A DNA stretch of 64,000 nucleotides from Deltaproteobacteria bacterium (GTDB lineage: Bacteria > Myxococcota_A > JAADFL01). Every line of letters starts with the position of its first letter. The stretch's first letter is position 1. The translations under genes and the position numbers were made by a program. Shown here one piece after another: positions 14,398-42,089 of this stretch. Location: assembly GCA_013152945.1 (NCBI GenBank), contig JAADFL010000212.1, positions 7,064-71,063 on the forward strand, read 5' to 3'. A model generated the notes under the pieces. It was given only the letters and a program-made list of their open reading frames with translations, did not search any database and had not been told where the DNA came from.

Positions 14398-14421
14398 CTC
14401 AAATGACCTCCAAGAACGGTG

Positions 14422-14450: not shown

Positions 14451-14594
14451 TATGCTGACAAGTGTTAAAAAGCTCACGATCTGAAATGATCTCAAGGATA
14501 ACCGTTTTGATTTTTTTTCGAGATCGATGAAACGGGACTGAAAAAAAGATGATGGGAAAATATTGTGGTCCAAAATCCACACTTACGTAATTTC

Positions 14595-14624
14595 TTGACG
14601 CTCAACCATCCTTGCCAATATAAT
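14595..14624 (+). promoter_or_regulatory. Candidate sigma70-type promoter for the motor/Glt-like array
   Basis: TTGACG (14595-14600), an 18-nt spacer, then TATAAT (14619-14624), about 135 nt upstream of the ATG at 14759. Confidence 0.45.
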
Positions 14625-14758
14625 CTGTATCCCGTATGGAAAGGAAAAGATGATCTTTTGTATTGAAGGTCGGTCTGGTAGCATCTTCGGTATCTGGTGG
14701 AGATTAGTGCGTTGAAGTTGGATGCCTGATTGCTACAGATCTTGTTGAGGAGATTACG

Positions 14759-15406
14759 ATGGAGTTTCTAGCAAAGTTTAATCCTTTTACGATGGGTGGG
14801 ATCTGGATGTTCCTGATACTGCTCGTGTCTGTCTATACCTTCACACTGATTGTGGAGCGAATGTATACCTTATGGTTTCGATACAAGATATCAGCCAACC
14901 AGGTGTTGAATCAGATTCTTTCCTTTGTGGATGCAAACAATTACAGCAGGGCCATAGAGGTATGCAATGCAAGGCAGAACCATCCTCTTGCCGTGGTGTT
15001 GAAAGCGGGTTTAATGAAAGCCAACAAGAATGACATAGAGGTAAAGCGGGCGCTTGAGCAGGCCATGCTGAAGGCTGAAGCACAGATCCAAAAACGCACG
15101 CCCTACCTGGCTACCCTGGCCAATGTAGCAACCCTGCTGGGGTTGCTGGGTACTATTTTTGGACTGATAATGGCATTCGAAGGCGTCGAGATGGCTTCGG
15201 CTGCAAAGAAGCAAGAGGTACTGGCGCGAGGCATTTCAGTTGCAATGGGAACCACGGCATTCGGCCTGATCGTGGCCATTCCGACGACAATTGCGCATGC
15301 CATAATAACGGCGCGTCAGAATTCGATCATTACAACTATCGAGGATGCCGCCATGACCCTGTTCAGCTATATATCTTCAAAGAACAGGAAAGCGGCGAGA
15401 CATTGA
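14759..15406 (+). CDS. MotA/TolQ/ExbB family proton-channel protein (AglR-like)
   Basis: 215 aa with the three-TM layout typical of TolQ/ExbB, including the C-terminal pair TLLGLLGTIFGLIMAF and TTAFGLIVAIPTTIAH. GAGGAG lies 6 nt upstream of the ATG. Confidence 0.85.
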   Translation: MEFLAKFNPFTMGGIWMFLILLVSVYTFTLIVERMYTLWFRYKISANQVLNQILSFVDANNYSRAIEVCNARQNHPLAVVLKAGLMKANKNDIEVKRALEQAMLKAEAQIQKRTPYLATLANVATLLGLLGTIFGLIMAFEGVEMASAAKKQEVLARGISVAMGTTAFGLIVAIPTTIAHAIITARQNSIITTIEDAAMTLFSYISSKNRKAARH

Positions 15407-15447
15407 ATATTGAAGTCGATGCTTGGGATTAGAAAGAGGTTTTTATA

Positions 15448-15963
15448 ATGAAATCCAAAGGGAAGACGAAGGAGGAACCGGTCGATCTCAATATGGTTCC
15501 CATCATGAACCTTTTTCTCGCAATGATTCCCTTTTTGCTTATGTGTGCGGCTTTCTTTCAGGTCTCTGTGATAAATGCTTCTGTTCCGGCCTTGTCCGAG
15601 GGCGGCGATTCATCCCAAGAGCCGAAGAAAGAGCTGCAAAAGGTTACAGTAAATGTACAGATAACCAATTCAGGCTTCGGAATATCAGCGACCGGCGACC
15701 AACCTGATGCAGAACTCAAGGCCTTGGGTGGGGTGATCCCCAAGAATGGCGGTAAATATGATTTCGAGAAATTGGCCCAAAAAATGAAAAGCATAAAGGA
15801 CAAGTACAGAAAGAGTGATACTGTCATTCTCCTGCCTGACAAGGGAATACTTTATGATACTTTGGTTAAAACCATGGATGCTACAAGAGAAAGGATATTG
15901 GACAAGAAGCTTGATACAAGGGAATACCTTTTTACAAATGCAGTGGTTTCGTCCATTTTGTAG
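15448..15963 (+). CDS. ExbD/TolR family protein, paralogue 1
   Basis: 171 aa. The N-terminus is EEPVDLNMVPIMNLFLAMIPFLLM (an ExbD/TolR-type TM), followed by a periplasmic domain. Confidence 0.8.
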   Translation: MKSKGKTKEEPVDLNMVPIMNLFLAMIPFLLMCAAFFQVSVINASVPALSEGGDSSQEPKKELQKVTVNVQITNSGFGISATGDQPDAELKALGGVIPKNGGKYDFEKLAQKMKSIKDKYRKSDTVILLPDKGILYDTLVKTMDATRERILDKKLDTREYLFTNAVVSSIL

Positions 15964-16009
15964 GGAAAACTGAAGGCAAGGGAAAGAATCCGGAAGGGAT
16001 AAATAAAGC

Positions 16010-16495
16010 ATGTCGAGGAAGAGGACCAAAGAAGTAGAGGTCATGTCCTTGAATCTGACATCGATGATGGACATGTTTACGATAATATTGGTCTTCCTGA
16101 TTTTCAGCTTTTCCAGCCAGGACCAAAATTTAAAATTGGACGGGGATCTCACTCTACCCGAGTCGATAGCCGGGCTCGATTTCAAGTGGGCGATAAATGT
16201 CAATATAACGCCTACAGAACTCAAGGTTGAGGGCAATCCGATAGCAAAAGTGAGAAACGGTAAGATATCAGGAGTAAAGATAGACAAAGATAAGAAAAGA
16301 ATACTTCCTCTTTACAACCTGTTGAAAAAATACAAAGAAATAGAAAACCGGGAGAAGGTCAACCCAACTGAAGACGAGACAGTAATAGCCTTCCAGGCCG
16401 ATAAGAATTTGCCTTTTCAGTTGATAGATTTGGTTATGAAGACAGCGGCTCAGGCCGGTTATCCTAATTTTCGTTTTGTGGTCCTGAAAAAGTAG
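16010..16495 (+). CDS. ExbD/TolR family protein, paralogue 2
   Basis: 161 aa with MSLNLTSMMDMFTIILVFLIFSF (an ExbD/TolR-type TM) and a periplasmic domain. Confidence 0.8.
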   Translation: MSRKRTKEVEVMSLNLTSMMDMFTIILVFLIFSFSSQDQNLKLDGDLTLPESIAGLDFKWAINVNITPTELKVEGNPIAKVRNGKISGVKIDKDKKRILPLYNLLKKYKEIENREKVNPTEDETVIAFQADKNLPFQLIDLVMKTAAQAGYPNFRFVVLKK

Positions 16496-16517
16496 CAGGA
16501 AAGATCGAGGAGAAGGC

Positions 16518-19031
16518 ATGGTTCGTCAATCCCCAGTAGTTCAGGTGTTCATCTTCAGGGAAGGACGATTCTGGGGCACTGAACTTTTTGCGCAACAGCA
16601 AATAATAATGGGAAGGAGCCCCGACGTAGACCTGCAACTCGACGACGATGTCGTTTCGCGAACCCATGCGGCAATGTCACTTGAAGCAGGAAAGATGGTC
16701 TTGGAAGACTTAAGTAGCGCCAATGGTACATTTGTTAACGGAGAGCCGGTGGAGCGTTGTTACCTGACTTCCAGGGACGAGGTTTCCATTGGCTGTTACA
16801 CGTTCAAGTTCAAGGTGCTTGGTAAAAAGAAGAGCAGTGTACAGGCTGATGAAACAAAGCTCATTGACCGGGAAAAGGCATTGAAGAGTATCAAGGATGG
16901 TACGGCTCTTCCCCTGGAAGTTGAGGAAGAACCCGAAACCATGGAAAGCGTAACCGTCCCGGGTACACCGAAAGGTCAGGATAAGCAGCCATCCAGGTCC
17001 AAACAGGAGGCTGGGTCCTTGTCATCCAAGCGCCTGGAACAGATGAAACGTAAAACTTCGGTGTACAAGGGAACTCCCTTTGAAGATGAGGTGCCTCTTC
17101 CTGCCAAAAAACCAAAATCAAGGCCCATTAAACAACTGGCGGATCACAGGCAGGAGATCCTGGCCGCCTTGAGACAGGAAACAGGGGGAGGGGCATTCGA
17201 TCGATCAAAAACCGGGGACCAGTCATTGGTGGAGGAAGAAGTTGTTTCCTCCGAGAGCATGATTGAAGACGATGCCTCTCTTGGTGTTTCTGAAGAGGAA
17301 CTCTATTCCTACTCCGGGGAATCCGGCAGAAAAGCGCTGCCCAAAAAGCGGCCATCTGCTGTTGAAGAGATTCATGCTTTCGGGGAAGGCCATAGAGATT
17401 ACAAAGATGAACCCGAACAACCGTTATCCTCCTTTGATGAATCTCTTGACGGGTTGGATAATCGTGACGCTGCTAGGGAAGCGCCGACTTTTGACCAAGA
17501 CGATGTGGGAAACGATCTTGCAGGCACTTTTGCAGGGGAAGAGGCTGGTGCTCTTGAATCAGCCCCGGAAGAATACAGCGATTATGGTGATGAAGACGAT
17601 GAAGATGAAGAAATGGTTCCTCCCGACTTCGTGGAACCGTTTTCACTATTGAACAACTTGATAAAAGAAAACTTCAAGAGGCCCGTGGTCCAGACCGTCC
17701 CGGAACCGGTTGTCGAGATAATAGGTTACACATCCGATCACAGTGTGGTGAGATTCGATCAAATCCGCAAGGGACAAAAATACAAGTTAGGACCCAGGGG
17801 GTTTGTCCTCAGTCATTTTAAGAATCAAGATACATGTAGAGTCAATTTCACTGATGCGTTTTCCGGGAAACTCCTGGCCAGCGGGAAAGCTCTTTCCCTC
17901 GACCAGCTTAAAAATGAAAGTAACATATCGAAGAAAAAGAAAGACGGAAATATCTACTCGTACAACTTGATGGAAGGAGACTACGCCAACCTGAAGCATG
18001 AAGGCGGAGGCTCCTTCCTGAGATTCGTCAAGCCGCCTAAATTGCCGCCTGCAAGGACGTCATTCAAGCTGGATACATTGAACATCAAGATATTTGGTTC
18101 CACTTTCATAGCCCATATTATATTTCTTGGTATACTAGGGTTGTTTTCGAGATCAGTGACTGCCGGTAATGATGTAGACTTGGATCGATTTGCCAAGGTG
18201 GCGGTAAAGTACGTCGAGATGGAAAAACCGGAAGAGGAGGCGGAGGTCCCGCTCGATCAACTCCCACAACCGGATAAGAAAGAAGAAATAAAGCAAGACA
18301 AGACCGAAGAGAAGAAGGCTCCTCCAAAGAAAAGACGAAGGAACAGGCGCAGCAAGAGCAGGCGGCGTGGCAGCGGAGGAGGAGGAGGCGGCGGCGGTGG
18401 AGCCGGAATAATGGCGGCCCTTGGCAACCTCTCGCAGAAAAAGGCCGCGACGAACATTGTTGCGGCTGTTTCCAACCTGGATGCAGTCCGTGTCCCAGGC
18501 GCCAGGTCGCGATTCAAGGTATCCGGACTGGTGACCAAGTTGCCGACCTCGAGCGTAGTGGTTTCAAGGGGGCGTGGTGTCGGAGTCAAGGCCGGAATAG
18601 ATCTTCTACGGGGAGGTAAAGGCCGGGGCGGCAGAGCCGGTATCGGCCCAGGTGCTTTAAGAGGCGGAAAGGCGGGCCGGAGATCGGTAGGCGGAGTTGT
18701 ATTCAAGGCGCCCAAGAGGCGAATAAGGGTAAGGGGACATTTGAGTAAGGCTGCAATTGCAAAAGTGGTGAAACAACACCTTAGGGAAATACAGTATTGT
18801 TACGAAAAAGCGTTGCTGATGAATTCGAATTTACAAGGGAAGGTTCAGATGCAATGGACCATTTCTATTTCAGGGTCGGTAACCATTGTCAAGACCAAGC
18901 AAAACACCTTAGCAACGCCTGCTGTTGCAATGTGCATTTCAGCCAAGATCAAGAGGTGGAAATTCCCGAAACCCAGGGGAGGCATAGTAGTGGTCACCTA
19001 TCCCTTTATTTTCAATACGGTGGGCTTCTAA
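16518..19031 (+). CDS. FHA domain / single TM / TonB_C-like (AgmX-PglI type C-terminal domain) protein, GltG/NfsG/PglI-like
   Basis: N-terminal FHA (GRSPDVDLQLDDDVVSRTHAAM...SANGTFVNGEPV). A long acidic linker leads to the TM IFGSTFIAHIIFLGILGLF, then a KE/RR/Gly8-rich spacer. The C-terminus IAKVVKQHLREIQYCYEKALLMNSNLQGKVQMQWTISISGSVT...CISAKIKRWKFPKPRGGIVVVTYPFIF matches my memory of the AgmX/PglI tail. Confidence 0.75.
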   Translation: MVRQSPVVQVFIFREGRFWGTELFAQQQIIMGRSPDVDLQLDDDVVSRTHAAMSLEAGKMVLEDLSSANGTFVNGEPVERCYLTSRDEVSIGCYTFKFKVLGKKKSSVQADETKLIDREKALKSIKDGTALPLEVEEEPETMESVTVPGTPKGQDKQPSRSKQEAGSLSSKRLEQMKRKTSVYKGTPFEDEVPLPAKKPKSRPIKQLADHRQEILAALRQETGGGAFDRSKTGDQSLVEEEVVSSESMIEDDASLGVSEEELYSYSGESGRKALPKKRPSAVEEIHAFGEGHRDYKDEPEQPLSSFDESLDGLDNRDAAREAPTFDQDDVGNDLAGTFAGEEAGALESAPEEYSDYGDEDDEDEEMVPPDFVEPFSLLNNLIKENFKRPVVQTVPEPVVEIIGYTSDHSVVRFDQIRKGQKYKLGPRGFVLSHFKNQDTCRVNFTDAFSGKLLASGKALSLDQLKNESNISKKKKDGNIYSYNLMEGDYANLKHEGGGSFLRFVKPPKLPPARTSFKLDTLNIKIFGSTFIAHIIFLGILGLFSRSVTAGNDVDLDRFAKVAVKYVEMEKPEEEAEVPLDQLPQPDKKEEIKQDKTEEKKAPPKKRRRNRRSKSRRRGSGGGGGGGGGAGIMAALGNLSQKKAATNIVAAVSNLDAVRVPGARSRFKVSGLVTKLPTSSVVVSRGRGVGVKAGIDLLRGGKGRGGRAGIGPGALRGGKAGRRSVGGVVFKAPKRRIRVRGHLSKAAIAKVVKQHLREIQYCYEKALLMNSNLQGKVQMQWTISISGSVTIVKTKQNTLATPAVAMCISAKIKRWKFPKPRGGIVVVTYPFIFNTVGF

Positions 19032-19756
19032 TGGTCTGCGGAGGGACAAATAAATTGGTACATTCCTCTAGAGGTACGGGCGCGTTGAGGTTTTTCATTG
19101 CTCCCATGCTCTTTGTGATGTTGGCATACTGTCCGGTATCACGCGCTGATGAGGATGAACTCGACTACGGCAAGATTTACGCGGTACAGCCGAGGGAATA
19201 CCGAATGAACCACGAGTTCTCGCTTTCATTGGCCTTTTTGCCTCTTGATGCATTCTACAAATACTTTGCCATAGGTGGTGAGTATGTATTGCATATTGAT
19301 GATTTCTGGGCTTGGCAGGTGATCCACTTTTCTTTCAGCCAGTACATGGACGTTGATACCGGGCTCAAAAAGGAATTGCATAAAAAGTGGGATGCCAGTG
19401 CCACCAGTACCCCTAAACTCAAGTATTTTCTGGATACAAGCGTCATGTTGAAACTGCTCTATGGAAAAGCAGCAATAATGAATGATTACGTGGTGCAAGA
19501 TGAGACATACTTACTTCTTGGAGCCGGTGTTCAACATATAGCAATGTTTTGGTTTCCTGCCGTAAATCTTGGCCTCGGCTTGAGAGTGTTCATCACCAAG
19601 ACAATCTCATTGAGAGGTGAAGTCAGGGAATACATCTATTTCGAGGAGGGAGCGCGCAGCAGTGGCGGAGGTGTACACAGCACTCTATATCTAGGGCTGG
19701 CTTTTTCCTACAATGCTTTTGCAGAGGAACCTCACATTGAGGAAAAGGTGAAATGA
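19031..19756 (+). CDS. Outer-membrane beta-barrel candidate, GltA/NfsA-like (paralogue 1)
   Basis: I trimmed it to the ATG at 19031 (TAATG overlap with the upstream stop). 241 aa with a signal-like ALRFFIAPMLFVMLAYCPVSRA, alternating-hydrophobic strands, and the shared motifs LPLDAFYK and KLLYGK with the next gene. Confidence 0.55.
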   Translation: MVCGGTNKLVHSSRGTGALRFFIAPMLFVMLAYCPVSRADEDELDYGKIYAVQPREYRMNHEFSLSLAFLPLDAFYKYFAIGGEYVLHIDDFWAWQVIHFSFSQYMDVDTGLKKELHKKWDASATSTPKLKYFLDTSVMLKLLYGKAAIMNDYVVQDETYLLLGAGVQHIAMFWFPAVNLGLGLRVFITKTISLRGEVREYIYFEEGARSSGGGVHSTLYLGLAFSYNAFAEEPHIEEKVK

Positions 19757-20478
19757 ATATGGTTACCCGCTTGAAATCTTGCGGTCTGTTTACTCTTTTC
19801 AGTTTAGCCTTGCTCATTGGATCAGCGCCCTGCCGGGCTGCCGACTCGAATAAGTCCGGAGACGAAGAAGTCTTTGTTGAGAAAAGTGCATATGGCCCGG
19901 TTCAAAAGAGAGTGTTCGCCCTGAAGCAGGAACTCTCTCTCGGGTGGGCATACCTCCCACTGGATGCTTATTATAAAGGTTATGGGGCGCAGATTGCCTA
20001 TACCGTACACTTTGACAACACTTTTGCTTTGGAATTATTCAGGGTGGGATGGTCTTATAACAAGGATACAAAACTAAAAACACGGCTCATCGAACAAATG
20101 CCTGACGTTTCTCCCACCGAGTTTCCGGCGATAGTCTTTTTTGAAAACACCGATTTGATAATGAAAATTCTCTATGGGAAACAAAGTTTATTAAACAGCT
20201 TTGTGCTCCACTATGAAATTTTTGTTGCGGCAGGAGTGACATTTGAATATTTGAATTCAGACAATATCACTCATGCGAAATCGGATAAGGATTATAATCG
20301 CCAATCGATGTTTCACTTTGGTATCAACGCCGGGATGGGATTCAGACTATGGTTTTCACCCAAGTGGTCTTTTGTGGTCGATCTAAGAGACAACTTGGCT
20401 CTCTTGAGTTTCACCGAAGATGAATTTCCACTGAAAAATGCGGCGATGCTAGGGATTTCTATTGCGGTAAACCTTTGA
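19753..20478 (+). CDS. Outer-membrane beta-barrel candidate, GltB/NfsB-like (paralogue 2)
   Basis: 241 aa with an ATGA overlap with the previous gene. It has the signal peptide LFTLFSLALLIGSAPCRA and the motifs LPLDAYYK and KILYGK shared with paralogue 1. Confidence 0.55.
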   Translation: MNMVTRLKSCGLFTLFSLALLIGSAPCRAADSNKSGDEEVFVEKSAYGPVQKRVFALKQELSLGWAYLPLDAYYKGYGAQIAYTVHFDNTFALELFRVGWSYNKDTKLKTRLIEQMPDVSPTEFPAIVFFENTDLIMKILYGKQSLLNSFVLHYEIFVAAGVTFEYLNSDNITHAKSDKDYNRQSMFHFGINAGMGFRLWFSPKWSFVVDLRDNLALLSFTEDEFPLKNAAMLGISIAVNL

Positions 20479-20494
20479 GATAAAGGGGCTATCA

Positions 20495-22192
20495 ATGCGA
20501 ATAAGATGGCTTTTTTCTGCTTGTATAGCCATGTCGGTATCGGCATTCATACCGGCAGGCAATACCCGGGAATTAAAGTTGACACATCAGACCGTCCAGG
20601 CAGAAAAGAACGGCGAAGACAAGGATAAGAACGGCGGACAGGACAAGGACAAGAATAAGACCGGGGATAAAACCGGGAAGAAGACAGAGAAGAAGACAGA
20701 GAAGAAGACAGAAAAGAAGACAGAAAAGAAGACAGAAAAAGAGAAAAAAGCAGAAGAGGGATTGAGTGAAGAGGAGTTGAAAGAACTCGAGGGCAAGGTG
20801 GCAAAAGAGGAAAAGAAAGTAGGCCCGGAGGTTTTCGACCAGGGAGTAAAGCTCTACTATGAGAAGAACTATGTCATGTCATGTAAGAAATTATGGGATT
20901 ACATGGCCGGTAACGAGCCGGGTGCGGAAAAATACGGCTATGCTGAGTTCTTTATCGCTAAATCATTGGAAGGTCTTGGCTTTACCCATGCGGCTATGGA
21001 GTATTACTACAATGTCGCCAAGAACAGGACCAAGCCCGAATTGCTGCCTGATGCGCTTCATGCAATAGAAAAAATAACCAGGAATCACCCATTTGACCAG
21101 GGACTTATCCTGTTGGATCTAATCTATGATACTACGTTTGGATATATCCCAAAGGATCTTTTGAATTTCATTCAGTACTACCAAGGTCTCATGGACTACC
21201 GTAATGGTTTCATACGATGGGGAAAGAATCATTTTGCCAAGATCGAGAAAGATTCGTACTACGAGTACAAGGCTAGATATGTTAAGGCCGTGTACGAATT
21301 GGTAAAGTATAACCTTGAGGATGCAATAAAAATATTCAAGAGTATCTTGGCCTCAAACATCAAGCAGGCCGATGTGATCAATAATACGAGGCAAAGCATC
21401 GCACGAATACTCTTCGAGCAGAAAAAATACAAAGAAGCCTATGACATGTACGAAAAAATAAATTCGCCGATAGAAAAACAGGCGAGTGTTTTCATGGAAG
21501 AAGCATGGACCCAGTATTATCTTAAAAATTATCAACGGGCCATGGGCCTGCTCTATTCTTTGCAAGCTCCATCCTTCAGGCATTATTTGAACCCGGAGCG
21601 TTTTATAGTCAAGGCTTTGATTTACAAGAATCTATGCCATTACAATGCAGCCAAGGATGCTGTGGCGGAATTCCGGGAGAAATACAATGATGCCCTTGAA
21701 TCCATATACAACCGAGTGGGTTTGGAACAGGATCCTACTATCATGGATGGGGCTTTACAGGAACCGGAACTCGTGGAACTCAGCAAATTCAGGAATCTCT
21801 TGGATAACGAAGTATATTTGCTTGGTAATTATATCCTGGATTGGTCCGACAACGGCCTTTTGGATCACTTGGCAAAGATCTATGATCTCAAAATTCGTGA
21901 AGTTGACCGTAAGATCAAACAAAAACTTGACAAGGCAATCAAGGCGTTTGCGGAAAAGCTGCTGGAATACCAGGAACAGATGAATCTCATGGATTACGAA
22001 ATCGGCCTGGCCATATACAAGCGCATCAAGGGCACGCCTACTGAAAACAAGGAGCAAAAGGGAGAGAACGAAATCCCGTTTTATGGGGTCAACGTGTACT
22101 ATCCGTTTGATGGCGAATTCTGGAACGACGAGATGCATGATTTCCGCTTCTTCATTGAGGATCGGTGCTATGGCGAGGAGCGGTGGGAGTAA
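20495..22192 (+). CDS. Secreted helical-repeat (TPR-like) protein with Lys/Glu-rich repeat region, GltC/NfsC-like position
   Basis: 565 aa. It has an N-terminal hydrophobic leader, a (KKTE)5 low-complexity tract, then helical-repeat sequence. The family assignment comes from context only. Confidence 0.5.
   Translation: MRIRWLFSACIAMSVSAFIPAGNTRELKLTHQTVQAEKNGEDKDKNGGQDKDKNKTGDKTGKKTEKKTEKKTEKKTEKKTEKEKKAEEGLSEEELKELEGKVAKEEKKVGPEVFDQGVKLYYEKNYVMSCKKLWDYMAGNEPGAEKYGYAEFFIAKSLEGLGFTHAAMEYYYNVAKNRTKPELLPDALHAIEKITRNHPFDQGLILLDLIYDTTFGYIPKDLLNFIQYYQGLMDYRNGFIRWGKNHFAKIEKDSYYEYKARYVKAVYELVKYNLEDAIKIFKSILASNIKQADVINNTRQSIARILFEQKKYKEAYDMYEKINSPIEKQASVFMEEAWTQYYLKNYQRAMGLLYSLQAPSFRHYLNPERFIVKALIYKNLCHYNAAKDAVAEFREKYNDALESIYNRVGLEQDPTIMDGALQEPELVELSKFRNLLDNEVYLLGNYILDWSDNGLLDHLAKIYDLKIREVDRKIKQKLDKAIKAFAEKLLEYQEQMNLMDYEIGLAIYKRIKGTPTENKEQKGENEIPFYGVNVYYPFDGEFWNDEMHDFRFFIEDRCYGEERWE
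20678..20737 (+). repeat. In-frame 12-bp tandem repeat x5 (aagaagacagag/a) encoding (KKTE)5
   Basis: I read it directly from the sequence. There are five consecutive units at 20678, 20690, 20702, 20714 and 20726, differing only at the third position of the Glu codon. Confidence 0.95.
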
Positions 22193-22211
22193 TATCGTGG
22201 TGGTGAGGAAT

Positions 22212-25200
22212 ATGAGAAGGAGCCTACCTGTCCTATATTTGATTCTGATGATGTTTTCAACGCCGTTCTTGTGCGGTTTTTCATTAACCAAGGATGCCGA
22301 GGAGAAGTCTGAATTCATCGAAAGCCTGATGCAGGACATTGTCAAAGTGGATCACTCGATAGGAGTAACCAAGGAGCTGATCAGGAGATCCAAAAATGCC
22401 TCCTTCCTGCCTGATATCATTTTCAGGTTGGCAGAGCTTTACGTGGAAAAATCCAGATTGGTCTATTACCTGGAAGTAGAAACAAAAGGAGCTGATCAAG
22501 CTGTTTCGTCACCAGAGGCCAAGTTGCTGAAAAATGAGGCTATTACAATTTACCGGGATGTCATGCACAGGTTTCCGGAGTACAGGTACAACGACAAGGT
22601 TCTTTTCTTTATGGCACATGAATTTCACGAATTGGGCATGCATGACGATATGCTGGACGCATATAAAAAGTTGGTGGACGATTATCCGAAGAGCCCGCTG
22701 GTTCTCGAGTCGTTATATATAATCGGAGACTACTATTTCAATCGTGACCAACTGGACGATGCAGAAAAATATTACAAGAAAATTCTCGAGTACAGGGAAT
22801 CTCCGATTCATGACATGGCCAGGTACAAATTGGGTTGGATCTCAATAAACAAAGCACGCACAGACAAGAAGTATTGGCGAATAGCCATCAAGCTTTTCGA
22901 AAGCGTTGTCTTGTCAAAGAACACGACGGACAAGGGTATTAAGGTCGATACCAACAAGATGGTCAATATCAAGCTCGAAGCGCTCAACGGGGTGGTATTT
23001 TGTTATACCGAGGTCTACAAACCGAAAAGGGCATTGGAATATTTCGAAAAGCTGGCCAGTTCGAAGCAACTTTATATGCATGCATTGAGCAAACTTGCGA
23101 ATAGGTATTTCATCAAGGAACAGTTCGACAATGCTGCATTGATCTATAGGCGGATAATAGCTCTTTCCAATGATGTGGAAAAGAATCTTGATTATGCACA
23201 ACGAATTTATGACGCATCCAGTTTCTCGAAAAGAAAAGACAAGGTTGACGAAGACGTGAAGGCCATTGTAAAGGCGGCTGAAAATTATACCTATTCCTGG
23301 CGTATTCCGGAAGAAGAGAAAAAACAACTTGCCAAGGAATTCGAGGTGTACGCAAGGGATATCGTAACCAAGCTCCACATGTTGGCCAAAAAGCGTAATG
23401 AGAAGAGAGCCTTCAGAATAGCGGCGCGGGCTTATAAGGAATACCTGGATTTTTTTGATTATTCCCCCAAGTTCATTGAAATGAAATTTAACTATGCTGA
23501 AGCATTGTTTGATTCAAAGCAATATTTAAAGGCAGGTGAAGCGTACGAGGATGTGGCGCGACTGAAAAAGGAGAGCAAGGAAAGAAAGGACGCGCTTTAT
23601 TCCGCCATCCAATCCTACCAGTACGCCCTGGGTGATTTGAAATACTTGACAAGGTTCGAGGTGGTGCAGGCCCGGCAGGGTTTAAAACAACTTGGTGCAT
23701 ATTTCGTAAAAAAATACCCCAAGGACCCAAAGACCCCGACAATAAAATTCAACGTAGCAAGAATGTATTACGACCAGGGCAAGTATAAACAGGCAATCGA
23801 GTCCTTCCTGGAATTCATTAAGCAATATCCAACAGCAAAAGAAGTGACGATTGCAGGCAACCTCGTGTTGGATTGTTATAAGCAACTGGAGGATTACAAG
23901 GGTTTGGCCAAACAGGCCAAAGCCTTTGCCGCGAATCAAAATATAAAGGATGAAAAGTTCAAACATGATGTATTGGCAATAGCGGACCAGGCAGAGGAAA
24001 GGCAACTCGACAAGGCAAGTCTCCAGGTGGCGGCCGAGGGTGGCAATGCCTTGGAGAAGCTTATTGAAATAGCAGACTCCGGGGACAGCGCGCTTAGTGA
24101 AAAGGCCCTTTATCGTTCCTTTGTTATGGCCAAGGAGAAACGAAACATCCAGATGGCTTTTAAGGCCGGTGCCCAGCTTGCGGCAAAATTCAAAAAGTCG
24201 AAGCACCTGCCTGATGTATACGCGACCTTGGGCAATTTTTCCGCCCAGACCGCGGATTTCGAGAGGTCCGCGTCCTTGTATGAGGATTTTTTCAGCCATT
24301 TTCCAAACATGCCCGAGGCAAGGGAAGCCATGTTCGCAGCGGCAACCTTTCATACTTATCTGGGACAGTATAGAGAAGCAATCAAGGACTATCGAAAGCT
24401 GTTGGAAAAGGAGACCGGGCAGAGAAAGGGTGAAATACTGATTTCCATCACAGAGGCCTATGCGAACATGGAAGACTGGCGAATGGTCATTACCATGGCA
24501 AAAAAGGCCTTGGCAGAGATTTCCGACAGCGTCAAGGCACACCTGCTATTGGCAAAGGCTTTGGAGAAAAGGGGTAAAATAGCAAAGGCCAAGGAAGCAT
24601 ACATGATGGCAGCAAGCGTGGGCGGAGGGTCTCCGCAAGAGACGCATCTCGCAGCAGAAGCTCAATTCAGGCTCGGTGACATCATGTTCAGCGAGTACAA
24701 GGATATCAAGTTCGGTGCCGGAGAAGCTGACGATGTAATCTTTCAGAAAAAGATGCAGAAGTTGGGACAGGTAGAACAATTCTATGCCGGTGTGGTCCAG
24801 ATGAAGGATCCTGAATGGGCAATAGCATCCCTTTACCGGCTGTCCAAGCTCTATGAGGATTTTGCTTCTTTTCTGAAAAAAGCTCCGATTCCCAAGGATC
24901 TGAAAGGAGCGCAAAAAAAACAATACAAGCAGATGCTGGCTAATCAAGTGAAAGAGCAAAGCATGACGGCAAAAACATACTTGAGTACTTGTGTTAAGAC
25001 CGTGCGTCAGAAAAAGGTTTTCGGTCCGTTTGCACTGGCTTGTATCAGGAATGAACCTCCGGTAGAGCAGGTGGTGAGACGAAGATCTGCAGGCCGGGCC
25101 AATGTTTCTCGTGTTACGGACTTCAAAAACAAGCTGCTTAAAAATCCGGCTGACTTGGAGGCCATGGATAAGTTGGCCATGGCTTCAATCGAGAGCGGGG

Positions 25201-25526
25201 ACTACTACATGGCCAAGCTTGTGCTTAGCCGGGCACTGGAGACAAGGGAAAGTCATGCCCCCAGCTTAAACCTCATGGGTGTCGTGTCGCTCTATATGGG
25301 GGATGACCAGGACGGTTATAATTATTTCAAGAAGGCCCTGGAATCAGACGTTCAGTTGTTGCCTGCAAGAATGAATTTAGCGGCCCTGTTCGTGAAATAT
25401 CAAGACCTGACAAGGGCCAGGGCTACTGTCAAGATGATTAGAGCGAGACTGAAGACGGCAGATCTGTCGACACCGGACTTTCATCCAATTGTTAGAGATG
25501 CGGTTGAGACACTGAAGTTGAGGTGA
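22212..25526 (+). CDS. Large secreted TPR-repeat protein, GltD/AgmU/NfsD-like
   Basis: I trimmed it to the ATG at 22212, which follows GGTGAGGAA. About 1104 aa with the signal peptide MRRSLPVLYLILMMFSTPFLCG and many TPR-like helical repeats throughout. Size and position resemble AgmU/NfsD. Confidence 0.6.
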   Translation: MRRSLPVLYLILMMFSTPFLCGFSLTKDAEEKSEFIESLMQDIVKVDHSIGVTKELIRRSKNASFLPDIIFRLAELYVEKSRLVYYLEVETKGADQAVSSPEAKLLKNEAITIYRDVMHRFPEYRYNDKVLFFMAHEFHELGMHDDMLDAYKKLVDDYPKSPLVLESLYIIGDYYFNRDQLDDAEKYYKKILEYRESPIHDMARYKLGWISINKARTDKKYWRIAIKLFESVVLSKNTTDKGIKVDTNKMVNIKLEALNGVVFCYTEVYKPKRALEYFEKLASSKQLYMHALSKLANRYFIKEQFDNAALIYRRIIALSNDVEKNLDYAQRIYDASSFSKRKDKVDEDVKAIVKAAENYTYSWRIPEEEKKQLAKEFEVYARDIVTKLHMLAKKRNEKRAFRIAARAYKEYLDFFDYSPKFIEMKFNYAEALFDSKQYLKAGEAYEDVARLKKESKERKDALYSAIQSYQYALGDLKYLTRFEVVQARQGLKQLGAYFVKKYPKDPKTPTIKFNVARMYYDQGKYKQAIESFLEFIKQYPTAKEVTIAGNLVLDCYKQLEDYKGLAKQAKAFAANQNIKDEKFKHDVLAIADQAEERQLDKASLQVAAEGGNALEKLIEIADSGDSALSEKALYRSFVMAKEKRNIQMAFKAGAQLAAKFKKSKHLPDVYATLGNFSAQTADFERSASLYEDFFSHFPNMPEAREAMFAAATFHTYLGQYREAIKDYRKLLEKETGQRKGEILISITEAYANMEDWRMVITMAKKALAEISDSVKAHLLLAKALEKRGKIAKAKEAYMMAASVGGGSPQETHLAAEAQFRLGDIMFSEYKDIKFGAGEADDVIFQKKMQKLGQVEQFYAGVVQMKDPEWAIASLYRLSKLYEDFASFLKKAPIPKDLKGAQKKQYKQMLANQVKEQSMTAKTYLSTCVKTVRQKKVFGPFALACIRNEPPVEQVVRRRSAGRANVSRVTDFKNKLLKNPADLEAMDKLAMASIESGDYYMAKLVLSRALETRESHAPSLNLMGVVSLYMGDDQDGYNYFKKALESDVQLLPARMNLAALFVKYQDLTRARATVKMIRARLKTADLSTPDFHPIVRDAVETLKLR

Positions 25527-26902
25527 ACCCGGTTTCAGGGGCTGGAGGCGATATGATGGCTGACAGGGCTTATTTCGGGAAAATGAAGATGCTCTTACAT
25601 TGTAAGCCATATATTATACCCTTCAGGGCTTATATTGTTGTTGCCCTGGTTTTTCTTGTCTTCGGCCCGGGCTGCGGGCTTAGATATACTGTACCCAAGG
25701 ACTTGATTAGGAGGCTTCCAAAGAGCAGCAGGAAGTCGGTCTTTCAGGCCAGAACGGTTGTAACCATTGCAATTGACAAAAAATCAAGTGTCAGGAGGAA
25801 GATAGCAAGTACCCGACGTGAAATAGAGCGTACAAAAGAGAGAATTGAGGATTTACAGGCAAAAAGGTCCAGGACCCCGGCCAGGAAAAGGGCCAGTTTG
25901 GATTTGGAAATCGCGATGCTGAAAGCCAAGTTGGATTTCCTGGATGAAAAGATTGATTTTTTAGAATTCAAGCTGAAAAAAGCGGCAAAGGAACTCTTGC
26001 TGGCCAAAGCCAGGTTCGAACTTTCCAAGGCCAAGCTGATTAAAAAGCATGCCATCAAATTTTCCGGAGACATTGGAGATTTTGAGGATCAGGTCAAGGA
26101 TCTTGAGGAGGATGCCAGGGATTACAAGAAGGAATTGGACGAAAGACAGAAAGAGCTGAAGGCTGAAGAAAAACAGTGGCTGGCTGTAAAAGAGAAATAT
26201 TATGCATCCGTAGGAGAGACTTCAAGGGGTTGGTGGACCGAACAGGAACAGGAAGGGCCTGCTTCAGAGGGTGAAAAGGTAATAGAAAACAAGGGAAATC
26301 CTCCTAAACAGCCGGGAGGCGTATCAGAGACCGAAAAGCCGGTGGATCGAATTTTGAAAAAGAGGAAGGCAATTATCAGGGATGATTTCAGATTGGCATT
26401 TCGATTCGGTGACAAGGCTTCTTTCTTACTGGATGAAAAAAATCCGAAGATGAGTCTCATGCTCTGGACATTGGATTTGGAGGCGGATTATTTTATTCAT
26501 CCAAACTTTCCTATTTTCATATCCTTTAATCCAGGTATAGGCCAAAGCCTGCGTAAGGGAGAAAAAGACGAGAAAATAACTTTTCTGCCAATCATGATAG
26601 GTATGCGATATCAGGATGCAGAGGGAATAGCTCTTCCCTATGTCGGAGTATGTTTTGGAAGCCAAGTCGTGTTTGGAGACAGGGAAACGAAAACAGGTAT
26701 TGGCTTCAGGACCAAGCTGAATTTCGGCATCGATGTCCGGGTCACTCGAACTTGGTCTATAAACCTGGAAGCCGGAGTATCTTATAGCCAGGTGCAACTT
26801 GAATATCACAAGGAGACCGACTATAGCGAGCCGAAGAGAACCAGAAAAACTTTCAACATGCTGGATGGATACATAACTGCAGGGGCTGCAGTCCGGTTCT
26901 AG
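25523..26902 (+). CDS. Coiled-coil protein with C-terminal beta-barrel-like region
   Basis: The GTG at 25523 forms a GTGA overlap with the upstream stop, and ATGs at 25552-25557 are alternatives. It has a hydrophobic leader (IVVALVFLVFGPGCG), a charged coiled coil of about 180 aa, then alternating-strand sequence ending ...ITAGAAVRF with a terminal aromatic residue. Confidence 0.45.
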   Translation: MNPVSGAGGDMMADRAYFGKMKMLLHCKPYIIPFRAYIVVALVFLVFGPGCGLRYTVPKDLIRRLPKSSRKSVFQARTVVTIAIDKKSSVRRKIASTRREIERTKERIEDLQAKRSRTPARKRASLDLEIAMLKAKLDFLDEKIDFLEFKLKKAAKELLLAKARFELSKAKLIKKHAIKFSGDIGDFEDQVKDLEEDARDYKKELDERQKELKAEEKQWLAVKEKYYASVGETSRGWWTEQEQEGPASEGEKVIENKGNPPKQPGGVSETEKPVDRILKKRKAIIRDDFRLAFRFGDKASFLLDEKNPKMSLMLWTLDLEADYFIHPNFPIFISFNPGIGQSLRKGEKDEKITFLPIMIGMRYQDAEGIALPYVGVCFGSQVVFGDRETKTGIGFRTKLNFGIDVRVTRTWSINLEAGVSYSQVQLEYHKETDYSEPKRTRKTFNMLDGYITAGAAVRF

Positions 26903-26921
26903 TGATAATGGAGTCTTGAAT

Positions 26922-29069
26922 ATGTGGCGGCGCCTATTAGTAACAAGTTGTCTGTTTTGGGCTATTGTCCTGTCGGCTTATATTGTTCCGCGTGTTGCTG
27001 GGGCAGAGGAAAAGCAGGGCGCCAAGACCGACTTCAAAACAGAGAAAAAAACCAAAAAGGCGGACGTGATAATAAAAGGCAAGGCCAGGATCGGTGACAC
27101 GCCAATGATGGAGGTGATTAAAGATTATTCGAACCAACTCAAGGAAGATCCAAACGACTCGGATGCTTGTTTCAATCTTGGCCTGGCGTATCATAGTTTA
27201 GGCAAGCTGAAAGAAGCTCGTAAATATTATGAAAAGGCGATTTCCCTGAATCCCCGGGACCAGGATGCCAGGATGAATCTTGCTGCTGTTCTTACAAGGA
27301 CCGGTAGGTTGCCGGATGCGGTTAAATTATATGAAGAAGTGATTGCAAGAGTCCCGGATATGGCGGAGGCCTATTTCAATCTTGGCGTGGTGTACACAAA
27401 GATGGGCAGGTTGGGCTTGGCCATCGGAGCTTATCAAACCGCAGTGGCAGTCAATCCCAAGATGGCTCTTGCCTTCTTTCAACTGGGGGAACTCTATCAC
27501 AGCAAGCTCGATTTCCAGAGCGCCGAAGAAGCATATTTGGATGCGTTGAAGGTGGAACCCGGATTGGCGGATGCTAGAAACAATCTTGGGAATATTTATT
27601 ATGAGCAGGGAGATCCCAAGGATGCCATTGAGCAGTACAAGAAGGCTATAGAAATTACGCCTAACGACCCTGAATTCCATTATAATATGGGGTTGGCCTT
27701 AGTTAAATTAGGTAAAATTGATGAGGCGATCAAAGAATACAAACAGGCTATCAAGCTTGCCCCTGATTATGCCGAGGCTTATAACAATCTTGGTGTAGCC
27801 CTGGGCCAAGCCGGTAAATTGAAAGAGATGATCAATGCATACAAGCAAGCGGCAAAATTGGCGCCCAAATATGCTGAAGCACATTTTAATCTTGGCTTGG
27901 CCTATTTCGCCCAGGGAAAATATGACAAGGCAATAGCCAAGTTCAATGATACCTTACTTGTAAATAAGAATTATGCCGATGCCCATGCTTATCTCGGAGA
28001 AGCATACTACCGAAAGGGTGATATCGGCAGGGCCCTGAGACATTTCAAGGAGGCCATTGCCATTAATCCGACCAAGGCCGAGTTTAGAAGCAAAATGGGT
28101 ATTGTTTACATAGAGGAGGGAAACCTGGACCAGGCGGAGTTGGCTTTGAAACAAGCATTGGCCATGAGCCCGAACGATCCGTCCATTAGGGTCTTTTTGG
28201 CCAGGGCATATATGGAAAAAGGTAAAAAGAATGAAGCATTAAGGGAATATGAAAAGGCAGTGAGCCTCGATCCGAACAAAGCTGATGCTCACGAGGCCTT
28301 GGCGGATATCTATGCAGAAAGAAAAAATTTTGCCAAAGCGATAGCACATGCCAAGGCGGTTGTAAGAGTCAAGCCCAAGGATCCGGCCTCCCATGTCTTA
28401 CTTGCAAAAATGTACATTGCACAGGATTTGCTCGACCTGGCTGCAGCCGAACTAAAGCGTGCACTTGAATTAGATCCCAAGTTTGCACTTGCATATTTTC
28501 AAATGGCTGAATTGTTCTATCGCAAGGGTGATGTGAAGGAACAAATCAGGTACTATAAAGAGGCATTGAAGCTCAATCCAAAGTTGTCCAGCGCCCGGCG
28601 TTCGCTTGGGGTTGCATATTATCATCAGAACCAATTGGACAAGGCAATAGCAGAGTTGATACGATCTTTGAAGAACGATCCGCGATCAGCCAAGGCCCAT
28701 TATTATCTCGGTGTGTTGTACTTTGATAATGCCTTCAAAAAAAACGGGCAGAAACAGAAATATTTAAAGAAATCAATAGATGCATTCAAGAAAGCACTTG
28801 AATGTAACCCAAAGATGGCTATTGCAAGGCATCGCTTGGGAAAGGTTTACGAGGAACTGGGAAACAAATCTCTTGCATTGAAGCAATATAACGCGGCTCT
28901 TCAGATGGACCCTAAACTAATGGATGCGAAACTTGATGCAGAAAGGCTGGAGTCAGAGCTTGGGGGCAGTAAAACCAAAACAGGTAAAGATCTTCAGCCA
29001 AAAGCGAAAATCCAGGATGCATCATCAGGCAAAGGAACCAATGAAAGCAAAGATGCAAAAAAGAAGTAA
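26922..29069 (+). CDS. Secreted tetratricopeptide-repeat protein (about 17 canonical TPRs), GltE/AglT/NfsE-like position
   Basis: Signal peptide MWRRLLVTSCLFWAIVLSAYIVPRVAGA. It carries repeated canonical TPR units (A..NLG..Y...G....A...Y..A....P). I prefer the ATG at 26922 over the track's TTG at 26916. Confidence 0.85.
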   Translation: MWRRLLVTSCLFWAIVLSAYIVPRVAGAEEKQGAKTDFKTEKKTKKADVIIKGKARIGDTPMMEVIKDYSNQLKEDPNDSDACFNLGLAYHSLGKLKEARKYYEKAISLNPRDQDARMNLAAVLTRTGRLPDAVKLYEEVIARVPDMAEAYFNLGVVYTKMGRLGLAIGAYQTAVAVNPKMALAFFQLGELYHSKLDFQSAEEAYLDALKVEPGLADARNNLGNIYYEQGDPKDAIEQYKKAIEITPNDPEFHYNMGLALVKLGKIDEAIKEYKQAIKLAPDYAEAYNNLGVALGQAGKLKEMINAYKQAAKLAPKYAEAHFNLGLAYFAQGKYDKAIAKFNDTLLVNKNYADAHAYLGEAYYRKGDIGRALRHFKEAIAINPTKAEFRSKMGIVYIEEGNLDQAELALKQALAMSPNDPSIRVFLARAYMEKGKKNEALREYEKAVSLDPNKADAHEALADIYAERKNFAKAIAHAKAVVRVKPKDPASHVLLAKMYIAQDLLDLAAAELKRALELDPKFALAYFQMAELFYRKGDVKEQIRYYKEALKLNPKLSSARRSLGVAYYHQNQLDKAIAELIRSLKNDPRSAKAHYYLGVLYFDNAFKKNGQKQKYLKKSIDAFKKALECNPKMAIARHRLGKVYEELGNKSLALKQYNAALQMDPKLMDAKLDAERLESELGGSKTKTGKDLQPKAKIQDASSGKGTNESKDAKKK

Positions 29070-29123
29070 ATGACCGGAGTTGTTTATTAGTGCTTGTTTT
29101 TTTTTAACAGGAGGAAAGGGAAC

Positions 29124-30263
29124 ATGGATAGGCGGGTAATGCTCGTGGGAGGGTCCTTGGCCCTGTTTTTTTCGTTCCTGGCAGGTTGTGAGGGGGGTAA
29201 ATACGAACGCCTTCCAAAGGCAACGGAAAAAGAAAAAGATGCACTTACCGAGAGATACAGGGCATTGATAGAGGAGGCCAAGGGGCTCAAGCCCGGCGAA
29301 GAGATCAAGCTCACACATCACTTCAGCGAACCCATTTTAAGCGATACGTCGCTGGAAGACTTTAAAAAGAAGATGGGATCATTTGTGAGTGAAGCTGCGG
29401 CCGGCAAGTGGGACAATGTCAAAATCATGGGAGCCAGGGCTCCGGGCAAGGTAAGGCTGCTTCTCATCGAGCTTGGTAAAAAATCAGGGGCAATTCCTTT
29501 TGTTCAAAGTGCTGACGGGTGGAAGCTGGATGACATTGATGCGGCTTCTGGAAATTTCGATAAAGATATCAATCTCAAGGGCAATGTGCCGAAGAGTCCT
29601 GCTTCCATCTTGCTTTCGGTTGCAATTCTACAAGATCCACAAGCCGGTTCAACGGAAAAGGTAACAAGTGCACTTCAGCTTGCGAAAATAAAAGATGAAG
29701 CCTTGGCTCGCCGTTTCCTGGCTCATGAGATCAGCCCCTGGCCAAAGGCTGCTTTGCTATATGCTGCATGGAAGGGCGGGGCGGCTTGCGAACCGTTTGC
29801 AAAATCATTTCCCTTACCGGCAGATGAACAGAAAGACCTGTATGAGGATGACACGGATAGTTTCAGGACCCTATTGAAAGGCCTGATTAATTGTGCTGTT
29901 TCATCAAAGTCCCTGGAACCCACAAATGTGGTTTACAAGGGCTGTCATGATGCTTCAGGTGGTCCCAGGAGCGAGTATGTAGATCCAGTGGTGGAATTGG
30001 CAAACAAGAAACCGGAATATATTCTAAAGGCAGCTATCAAGGCAGGCTATCCTTATAACGAGGATCCGGTGGCCAACATAGTTGTAGGAGCATTGCACGG
30101 CGAACAAAAGAGCCCATTTTGGCAATACCTGAATACCCGGGCCGTAAGGGCAAGGGGTGAACTTGGCAAGTTGGCCAGGTTCTGGGTCGAAAAAATGGTT
30201 GAACGTGACAAGCTGGAACCACCTGGCTCGGAGAAACAACAACAAGGGCAACCGAAAAAATAG
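29124..30263 (+). CDS. Lipoprotein of unknown function (last gene of the array)
   Basis: AGGAGG precedes the ATG at 29124. There is a canonical lipobox in LALFFSFLAGCEGG. I recognised no family. Confidence 0.6.
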   Translation: MDRRVMLVGGSLALFFSFLAGCEGGKYERLPKATEKEKDALTERYRALIEEAKGLKPGEEIKLTHHFSEPILSDTSLEDFKKKMGSFVSEAAAGKWDNVKIMGARAPGKVRLLLIELGKKSGAIPFVQSADGWKLDDIDAASGNFDKDINLKGNVPKSPASILLSVAILQDPQAGSTEKVTSALQLAKIKDEALARRFLAHEISPWPKAALLYAAWKGGAACEPFAKSFPLPADEQKDLYEDDTDSFRTLLKGLINCAVSSKSLEPTNVVYKGCHDASGGPRSEYVDPVVELANKKPEYILKAAIKAGYPYNEDPVANIVVGALHGEQKSPFWQYLNTRAVRARGELGKLARFWVEKMVERDKLEPPGSEKQQQGQPKK

Positions 30264-30455
30264 AGAAGCAAGAAAAAAGATCACAAATAGTGGTTCCGGT
30301 TACTTGGTTCGTTCTTGACTCGCTTTTATCGGCGATGACTGTTTGTTGTTCCAGTTTCTGTTTTTCCGGCTCCTAGCTTTCTTCTTGGCATGAGCCTCCA
30401 TTCATCCTAGATTAAAAAGAGCAACACGAGGGCCGCAAGGCAAGGGTATTTGCAT

Positions 30456-31583: not shown

Positions 31584-31595
31584 CTAAAAAGAGGT

Positions 31596-42071: not shown

Positions 42072-42089
42072 GTTAATCTCCTTGAAAGA

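Follow-up and report, generated by a model that had tools for sequence, protein, structure and literature searches.

The window analyzed here is a 64,000-nucleotide (nt) stretch of contig JAADFL010000212.1 from a Deltaproteobacteria assembly (GCA_013152945.1), and its subject is a gene cluster related to the Agl-Glt gliding machine and the Nfs system of Myxococcus xanthus. The cluster belongs to a block of eleven close-packed open reading frames (ORFs) on the plus strand, 14759-30263, and the co-directional, tight packing given in the original prediction was found again in the ORF list of the window. With the start codons of that prediction, the intergenic spacing across the eleven genes was -4 to +46 nt. 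The block is preceded by a 361-nt gap, up to a divergent dnaJ gene, and followed by a gap of 186 nt. The products are named P1 to P11 in gene order, and their coordinates are collected in Table 1.

Gene content and predicted products of the cluster

Judged from the sequence, the layout of the genes looks operon-like. The promoter-like site in the gap upstream of gene 1 matched 11 of 12 consensus positions and was the best of the region, and promoter-like and terminator-like matches inside the block occurred at the frequency expected from shuffled sequence. Topology prediction gave transmembrane (TM) helices for P1 to P4 and signal peptides or lipoboxes for P5 to P11. The TAATG junction reported at 19031 is present at 19029-19033. 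The GTGA motif reported at 25523 is also present (25523-25526), but the 4-nt overlap read from it is doubtful because ATG 25553, with GGAGG 4 nt upstream, is more likely to be the start of P9 than GTG 25523. The database copy of P11 has 379 amino acids (aa), and its start is probably ATG 29124. The coiled-coil/barrel protein, which had been listed as one of the last two genes, is actually gene 9, between the genes of the 1104-aa and 715-aa proteins.

Table 1. Cluster genes, their adjoining lipoprotein gene, and the upstream promoter-like site (window coordinates)
Feature	Description	Coordinates	Strand	Evidence or remark
Promoter-like site	TTGACG + 18-nt spacer + TATAAT	14595..14624	+	In the 361-nt gap; consensus match only
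P1	AglR/TolQ/ExbB-type proton-channel subunit, 215 aa, 3 TM	14759..15406	+	Pfam MotA_ExbB, E 1.6e-26
P2	ExbD/TolR paralogue 1 (AglQ/AglS-like), 171 aa	15448..15963	+	Pfam ExbD, E 8.4e-16
P3	ExbD/TolR paralogue 2, 161 aa	16010..16495	+	Pfam ExbD, E 1.7e-14
P4	GltG-like transducer, 837 aa	16518..19031	+	NCBIfam GltG and myxo_SS_tail matches, FHA
P5	GltA/B-type outer-membrane barrel candidate, 241 aa, signal peptide	19031..19756	+	TIGR04565, 69.5 bits (cutoff 60)
P6	Paralogous barrel candidate, 241 aa, signal peptide	19753..20478	+	TIGR04565, 57.7 bits (just under cutoff 60)
P7	GltC-like secreted protein, 565 aa	20495..22192	+	NCBIfam GltC, E 1e-19
P8	GltD-like secreted tetratricopeptide repeat (TPR) protein, 1104 aa	22212..25526	+	Pfam TPR families
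P9	Coiled-coil lipoprotein with C-terminal barrel-like domain	25553..26902	+	Conserved module aa 50-240 (counted from GTG 25523)
P10	Secreted TPR protein at GltE position, 715 aa	26922..29069	+	Many TPR repeats
P11	Lipoprotein, LAGC lipobox, HEAT-like helical repeat fold	29124..30263	+	AlphaFold2 pLDDT 91.8

The GC content was 0.42-0.49 across the cluster (window positions 14000-30000) versus 0.50-0.55 in the flanks. The drop lay mostly at second codon positions (Lys-rich proteins), and GC at third positions was just slightly lower. The dip was considered as a mark of horizontal transfer and rejected as a second-position effect, with no clear sign of recent transfer.

The first three genes encode the putative motor. 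P1 reached 78 bits with the NCBIfam equivalog TolQ (cutoff 221) and 46 bits with ExbB (cutoff 206). It shared 21-23% identity with Escherichia coli TolQ/ExbB and 35-41% with channel proteins encoded beside GltG-like genes, including one at a Bdellovibrionota locus, and it retained the GLLGT and TTAFG channel motifs with two conserved Thr residues. P2 and P3 make an AglQ/AglS-like pair of divergent ExbD paralogues in place of a single protein, and scored 17.7-21.6 bits with the ExbD equivalog (cutoff 216). The pattern of AglR with AglQ/AglS, a channel with two different TolR/ExbD-like subunits, was thus present, and family searches of the block proteins found no tolA, tolB, or pal gene. A grouping of the motor with canonical TolQR/ExbBD, which the original prediction had named as evidence that would count against it, is disfavored by the sub-cutoff TolQ and ExbB scores. 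In several lineages, the motor genes stay linked to the GltG-like gene.

At the TM proton-binding position, where E. coli TolR and ExbD have Asp (D23 and D25, respectively), the alignment placed Asn in P2 (PIMNLF) and Asp in P3 (SMMDMF). The same Asn/Asp split between the two ExbD paralogues was found in the related loci L086, L087, and L006 (L numbers denote related loci throughout), and L002 and L008 have Asp in both. These residues suggest a motor plug in which only one of the two subunits would be able to bind a proton.

For P4, the best whole-protein NCBIfam match was GltG (E 1.5e-51, 175.7 bits; cutoff 650). The C-terminal AgmX/PglI domain (myxo_SS_tail) scored 115.5 bits against a cutoff of 40, and Pfam placed an FHA domain at the N terminus (E 2e-16). 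A single TM helix was located at aa 525-543 by topology prediction and at aa 520-542 in the AlphaFold2 model. This model has four confident elements between disordered linkers (domain confidence 85-93), among them the FHA domain at aa 1-104, a second beta domain at aa 395-505 directly before the TM helix, and an alpha/beta domain at aa 740-835. The linker after the FHA domain is disordered and acidic, the periplasmic linker after the TM helix is rich in Pro, Lys, and Gly, and the secondary structure predicted for the C-terminal domain is helix-helix-strand-strand-helix-strand. P4 therefore has the GltG-type bitopic layout of a cytoplasmic FHA domain, one TM helix, a periplasmic linker, and an AgmX/PglI end. 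In a 2025 structural study, GltG has the same layout as the P4 model, with an FHA-like domain adjacent to its TM helix (PMC11761067).

A Foldseek search with the full-length P4 model returned FHA matches only (TM-score > 0.8). With the Pfam model TonB_C (PF03544), P4 scored 15.2 bits (E 0.031; gathering score 24.6), and this model matched 9 of 12 members of the P4 family, at best with an E value of 4.4e-5. When the PDB was searched by sequence with the C-terminal domain of P4, TonB chains made up four of the five matches (E 0.4-1.3). About 36 close relatives of P4 were found at approximately 42-83% local identity, all of them in metagenome assemblies labeled Deltaproteobacteria, Myxococcota, or Myxococcales. 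Two close homologues (L001 9965-12001 and L004 5193-7418; 53-59% identity over about 500 aa) stood alone, with no motor, barrel, or TPR genes in the flanks of 10 kb in L001 and about 5-6 kb in L004, which is a 13.5-kb contig. One of the two lies in a metagenome-assembled genome (MAG) from Zodletone spring.

P5 and P6 are paralogues (26% identity, E 2e-21). The model TIGR04565 also matched both barrels of L091, a locus in Glt/Nfs order (84.8 and 104.5 bits), and by these matches it is a marker of GltA/B-position barrels. Paired GltA/GltB-type barrels, as in Group A of the family (see below), are thus predicted from sequence models for P5 and P6. The sole NCBIfam match of P7 was GltC (70.8 bits; cutoff 450), and P7 shared 31-36% identity with its syntenic homologues. 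Its N-terminal (KKTE)n low-complexity stretch is encoded by the 12-nt tandem repeat AAGAAGACAGAA (5.2 copies, 20678-20739). A second, imperfect 24-nt repeat lies at 20606-20655 in the same gene.

A BLAST alignment of P8 with the protein at the GltD position of L091 covered 975 aa (25% identity, E 8e-48). A profile of the P8 family retrieved 157 proteins at E <= 1e-10, among them the L091 protein at E 5.7e-99; the matches were unnamed or "TPR protein" metagenome entries, with no labeled GltD or NfsD among them, and NCBIfam gave no GltD model match for P8, any other cluster protein, or the homologues. Because of its homology to the GltD-position protein of L091, P8 is assigned by sequence to the GltD family, and its size fits the listed GltD homologues (987-1237 aa). 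P8 also had a partial YbgF/CpoB-like TPR match (78 bits; cutoff 90). P7 and P8 form a GltC-like and GltD-like secreted pair side by side, and this adjacency is conserved. P10 scored 193.1 bits with GltE (cutoff 225), and the models Tgl, MamA, and PilW matched it above their own cutoffs, so that these scores are not diagnostic. Its position after the GltD-like gene is conserved, and the GltE assignment is made by position.

Homologues of the conserved P9 module, with lengths of about 215-225 aa, are encoded in L002, L003, L005, L008, L011-13, and L087, flanked by the GltD-like and TPR genes, and the lipobox Cys is conserved among them. The C-terminal domain of about 160-200 aa (about aa 300-459; window 26420-26899) ends in AAVRF and gave a weak match to Pfam OMP_b-brl (E 0.006). 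No locus other than the window and L086 has the long form. In an exhaustive search of 1.84 billion representatives, 68 relatives of P9 were found, 66 of which cover the N-terminal module alone; besides the window's own protein, one 147-aa fragment matched the C-terminal part. From these matches, P9 appears to combine a coiled-coil lipoprotein that is conserved in this class of clusters with a rare, lineage-specific extra domain. Kinship of that domain with the P5/P6 barrels was considered and was not demonstrable (hhalign probability 10%).

P11 had no Pfam or NCBIfam match. Its AlphaFold2 model consists of a small beta domain and HEAT-like repeats, and a structure search gave generic HEAT-like repeats, with no PDB match at E < 0.02. 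The P11 gene adjoins the cluster only in the window and its nearest relative (L081/L086), and in L087 the cluster ends after gene 10. Homologues were found elsewhere, in L082, L084, and L085, beside MshEN or glutamine-synthetase genes, and one of these is the same MAG as L003. Because three relatives carry its homologues at unrelated loci, P11 is treated as a neighbor and not as a conserved member of the cluster.

Conserved gene order and kinship with the Agl-Glt/Nfs family

Genes 1-10 were found in the same order in L002, L005, L086, and L087. The order was also the same in L003, which begins within the GltG-like gene and so holds genes 4-10 only. The Glt part is kept in L007, L008, and L009, with the motor after the TPR gene in L008, and loci of Myxococcaceae-labeled MAGs (L011-13) have the order G-barrel-C-D-P9-TPR. 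Reduced versions were found in L006 (labeled Desulfobacterales) and L090 (labeled Nitrospinota). The gene order recurs down to 31-37% protein identity. Since the same order recurs in related loci, the sequences indicate that the block is not a chance arrangement. The co-occurrence of the eleven-gene block in other genomes, on which the original prediction was to be checked, held for genes 1-10 and, for gene 11, extended to the nearest relative only.

In L087, the second ExbD gene is followed by an extra 138-aa gene (2244-2660) before the GltG-like gene begins, a position at which the window has only 22 nt. It may be a counterpart of the small MXAN_1331/GltF-like gene of the G5 cluster described below.

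The family has been surveyed previously (PMC3169522). Group B, consisting of GltC, GltD, GltE, and GltG with AglRQS, occurs as a single-locus "core complex" in Geobacter, gammaproteobacteria, and Fibrobacter, and its function was given as unknown. Group A, including GltA/B, was found in Myxococcales and Bdellovibrionales. In Bdellovibrio, one locus (Bd0828-0838) holds barrel, barrel, GltC-, GltD-, GltE-, and GltG-like genes followed by AglR, AglQ, and AglS, and three further clusters are motor linked (Bd0413-0420, Bd1474-1481, and Bd2369-2377) (PMC3169522, Table S3). M. xanthus has the paralogous clusters G4 (MXAN_1919-1923), G5 (MXAN_1327-1331), and M2 (MXAN_3003-3005), with functions given as unknown, and insertion mutants of MXAN_1327 (G5, GltD-like) and MXAN_1922 glide normally (PMC3169522). 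The one-locus layout that the original prediction had presented as unusual is not new: single-locus clusters of motor and Glt genes (Bdellovibrio; Geobacter core complexes) are listed in Table S3 of Luciano et al. 2011, and clusters of this kind have been described since then.

The Agl-Glt/Nfs reading of the cluster was borne out by GltG as the best match of P4, GltC as the only match of P7, the TIGR04565 barrels, the homology of P8 to the L091 protein, and the conserved order. Profile searches did not place the 241-aa and repeat proteins in unrelated families, in view of the TIGR04565, GltC, and P8-L091 matches. The machine is not "complete," as had been claimed, since counterparts of GltF, GltH, GltK, GltI, GltJ, CglB, AglZ, and MglA were not found in the window; for the GltI/GltJ/AglZ/MglA-type partners, this agrees with the original prediction. 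The CglF, CglE, and full-length GltJ models had no match in any cluster protein, though CglF and CglE match L091, and of the GltJ model only the shared C-terminal domain matched in the cluster. A P-loop motif search found no MglA-type P-loop ORF in the window or beside the G5-like loci.

L091 served as the reference in Nfs order. Its genes encode, in sequence, two barrels, a GltC-like protein, the GltD-position protein, a GltE-like protein, a 90-aa protein, an FHA protein, and a 277-aa protein, which equals nfs A to H. Its model scores were much above those of the window: 373.6 bits over the full length with GltG, 204 bits with GltC, 68.9 bits with CglF (GltF), and 82.9 bits with CglE (GltH; cutoff 70).

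Because the Glt equivalog cutoffs were missed, the cluster proteins are read as paralogues, not orthologues, of the gliding proteins. By gene content and order, the description that fits the cluster best is an Agl-Glt paralogue of the G5 type that carries its own motor. The G5 order and sizes, 749/246/538/1089 aa (Table S3), compare with 837/241(+241)/565/1104 aa in the window. The Myxococcaceae-labeled loci L011-13 are intermediates: their gene sizes match MXAN_1330/1329/1328/1327, and they also carry P9-like and P10-like genes. Their GltG and GltC model scores (199 and 84 bits) are low like those of the window. In neighbor-joining trees of P8 and P7, the clade of the window grouped with L011-13 (31-37% identity), separated by a long branch from L091 (20-24%). 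A reading of L011-13 as a G4 cluster beside mglBA was dropped, as no MglA was found and Table S3 shows the G5 match.

L006 and L090 carry G5-type clusters with a TIGR04565-like barrel. If their labels (Desulfobacterales and Nitrospinota) are correct, GltA/B-type barrels also occur outside the two orders of the 2011 report, Myxococcales and Bdellovibrionales.

Compared system by system, the closest match to the window in gene order and sizes is G5, which has the FHA-containing GltG-like, GltB-like barrel, GltC-like, and GltD-like genes in order and at matching sizes. Unlike G5, the window carries two barrels, has a motor of the AglRQS type alongside, and includes P9 with its added C-terminal domain, and it lacks the MXAN_1331-like small gene. 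Its proteins share 31-35% identity with those of the G5-like MAGs. The Bdellovibrio clusters likewise unite the motor, GltG-, GltC-, and GltD-like genes, barrels, and sometimes a GltE-like gene at one locus; however, the gene order differs (the motor is last in Bd0828-0838), no P9-like gene is listed, and the phylum is another. For Bdellovibrionota, the sequence comparison comprised one partial locus, L022.

The barrel-barrel-C-D-E run of the window matches nfsA-E, and AglR is a binding partner of NfsG, an FHA/TonB-like protein. Although Nfs belongs to this family, its task is to move a surface glycan and not to power gliding. Unlike Nfs, the window has no NfsF/NfsH counterparts, the G gene is first instead of seventh, and P9 lies between D and E. 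The Agl-Glt gliding machine shares with the window the motor, GltG, GltD, GltC, and GltA/B modules of the proposed force path, whereas GltF, GltH, GltI, GltJ, GltK, and CglB were not found in the window and the equivalog cutoffs were unmet; in M. xanthus, its genes are split over the G1, G2, and M1 loci. The core complex, an ancestral form, is also a single locus and occurs in nongliders, but it is without GltA/B-type barrels, of which the window has two in addition to P9.

Proposed mechanism and alternative explanations

We consider it probable, at roughly 0.8, that the products of genes 1-10 (14759-29069) make up a single envelope-spanning Agl-Glt/Nfs-family complex that is driven by the proton motive force (PMF), belongs to the G5 paralogue class, and has its own AglRQS-type motor. 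In M. xanthus, AglR binds GltG and NfsG, and the AglQ substitution D28N stops the motor (PMC3858216). In the predicted architecture AglR5-AglQ-AglS-GltG, GltG wraps GltD, GltC scaffolds GltA/B, and GltE binds GltD (PMC11761067). Each link of this force path has a counterpart in the cluster (P1-P3, P4, P8, P7, P5/P6, and, by position, P10).

From gene content, family membership, conserved order, and predicted topology, we infer the following contacts, stoichiometry, and output. P1 would form a pentameric channel around a plug made of a P2/P3 heterodimer, with the proton-binding Asp supplied by P3, and the target of this motor would be the P4 TM helix. Through its long periplasmic linker and TonB_C-like end, P4 would engage the TPR pillar P8. 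P7 would join P8 to the outer-membrane barrels P5/P6, and P10 would bind P8. P9 may be an additional coiled-coil part, anchored by lipid, that typifies this paralogue class, and the cytoplasmic FHA domain of P4 may be the input for a phosphothreonine-bearing or scaffold partner. The output would be force or movement on an outer-membrane complex dealing with some component of the envelope or surface. Such an output is most likely, in preference to focal-adhesion gliding, because MXAN_1327 is dispensable for gliding and Nfs moves surface glycan. The original prediction had left the function of the machine open, which was fair.

Several points weigh against this PMF-driven G5-type complex. The Glt equivalog scores are far under their cutoffs (GltG, 175.7 versus 650 bits; GltC, 70.8 versus 450 bits), and P10 is indistinguishable by score from generic TPR proteins. 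The TonB_C-like nature of the P4 end is weakly suggested by the sequence matches. No GltF bridge, GltH, GltK, or adhesin gene is present in the cluster. As P2 is without the Asp, the motor chemistry may differ. The link to G5 is drawn from gene order and sizes in Myxococcaceae-labeled MAGs, and the cluster is known from the genes of an uncultured organism.

The strongest competitor is a working gliding-motility machine, that is, a single-locus Agl-Glt set such as Bdellovibrio may have. Bdellovibrio glides and has single-locus clusters of nearly the same parts (Bd0828-0838), and the window has every module of the force path that leads from the motor via GltG, GltD, and GltC to GltA/B. However, the gliding machinery of Bdellovibrio itself has not yet been identified, and neither the cluster nor the window holds a counterpart of CglB, GltK, GltH, GltF, GltI, GltJ, AglZ, or MglA. 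G5, which is most similar in organization, is not needed for gliding, and related anaerobic Myxococcota MAGs were reported to be without A-motility-specific genes (bioRxiv 10.1101/2021.07.06.451402). Gliding is therefore an unlikely function of the cluster.

A housekeeping Tol-Pal or TonB system that happens to lie beside unrelated TPR and barrel genes would follow the same predicted logic as the cluster, with a 5:2-type PMF motor that drives a single-pass transducer whose periplasmic linker is long and whose end is putatively TonB_C-like. In favor of this explanation, the TolQ/ExbB and TolR/ExbD superfamilies include P1-P3, YbgF/CpoB-like TPR models match P8 in part, and a TonB-dependent receptor is encoded at 50958-53231. 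Nevertheless, the TolQ and ExbB equivalog cutoffs were missed widely, and the plug would be a heteromeric pair of divergent ExbD paralogues rather than one protein. In place of adjacent TolA, TolB, and Pal, there is an 837-aa protein with a cytoplasmic FHA domain and GltG as its best match. Its putative partners are TPR proteins and barrels, whereas those of Tol-Pal and TonB-ExbBD are TolB-Pal or TonB-dependent receptors. The block is also kept as a unit in many MAGs. This explanation is thus very improbable.

Least probable of all is a chance series of unrelated transcription units, or a MotA-like anti-phage system such as Zorya, for which there are weak promoter-like matches inside the block and weak PADLOC matches of ZorA to P1 (E 2e-4 to 7e-3), against which stand the order recurring at low identity, the gaps of -4 to +46 nt, internal promoter and terminator matches at the level of shuffled sequence, the length of P1 (215 aa versus 461-692 aa in the ZorA models), and the other PADLOC matches, which are coiled-coil noise on P9 only.

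Host, neighboring genes, and significance

The minus strand at 53496-63982 encodes, in order, an AOR-family protein (tungsten type, truncated where the window ends), a ferredoxin, an HdrD-like CCG protein, a 1022-aa HdrA-like protein, an MvhD/FlpD-like protein with a helix-turn-helix (HTH) domain, a NuoF-like protein, and a 2Fe-2S protein. We take this gene set to have the layout of a class II benzoyl-CoA reductase (BamB-I), as in the Geobacter Bam cluster. The class II benzoyl-CoA reductase neighborhood of the original prediction is plausible from this domain layout, and because the layout matches that enzyme, an anaerobic lifestyle of the host is plausible as well. The foreign host that had been implied was not supported, as the closest relatives of the cluster are MAGs labeled Myxococcales, Myxococcota, or Deltaproteobacteria. 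Anaerobic uncultured Myxococcota have been described (bioRxiv 10.1101/2021.07.06.451402).

Downstream of the block, the plus strand at 30450-39431 encodes a DegT-family sugar aminotransferase, a 424-aa protein, a 743-aa protein with at least seven TM helices and no family match, a flippase-like LPG_synthase_TM protein, a 333-aa protein, and a PMT_2 GT-C glycosyltransferase. These genes look like a glycan or lipid modification set. The DegT, GT-C, and flippase genes were considered as a cargo pathway of the machine, but they are not conserved beside the cluster in L081 or L087, and no link is claimed. Upstream, the plus strand at 7010-11282 encodes a 1011-aa protein with VIT and VWA domains, which scored 428 bits on a marine sortase-target model (cutoff 551), followed by a 366-aa TPR protein. 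CglB, the adhesin used by M. xanthus in gliding, is likewise a VWA protein. The minus strand at 41022-53231 encodes a 1306-aa CobN/Mg-chelatase large subunit, a ChlI/VWA-type subunit, an ABC ATPase, and the TonB-dependent receptor mentioned above, and is probably a metal-chelatase and uptake set.

A tentative extension, which we regard as possible though doubtful, is that the motor-linked G5-type ten-gene cluster represents a self-contained ancestral form of Agl-Glt that strictly anaerobic, nonsocial relatives of the myxobacteria have retained. It would serve neither gliding nor the spore coat (e.g., it might move or anchor an envelope or surface polymer), and the barrel-like fusion in P9 and the plug with one proton-binding subunit would be lineage-specific additions.

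The G5-type set travels with its own motor as a compact unit in uncultured, putatively anaerobic lineages. This bears on the nongliding members of the Agl-Glt family (the core complexes and M. xanthus G4, G5, and M2), whose function has been an open question since 2011. The locus reveals no new kind of machine, and its two lineage-specific features, the added P9 domain and the Asn of P2, are modest; it supplies a minimal list of parts for reconstitution or for predicting the complex, and it suggests which M. xanthus genes may belong together, namely, MXAN_1325-1331 with MXAN_3003-3005.

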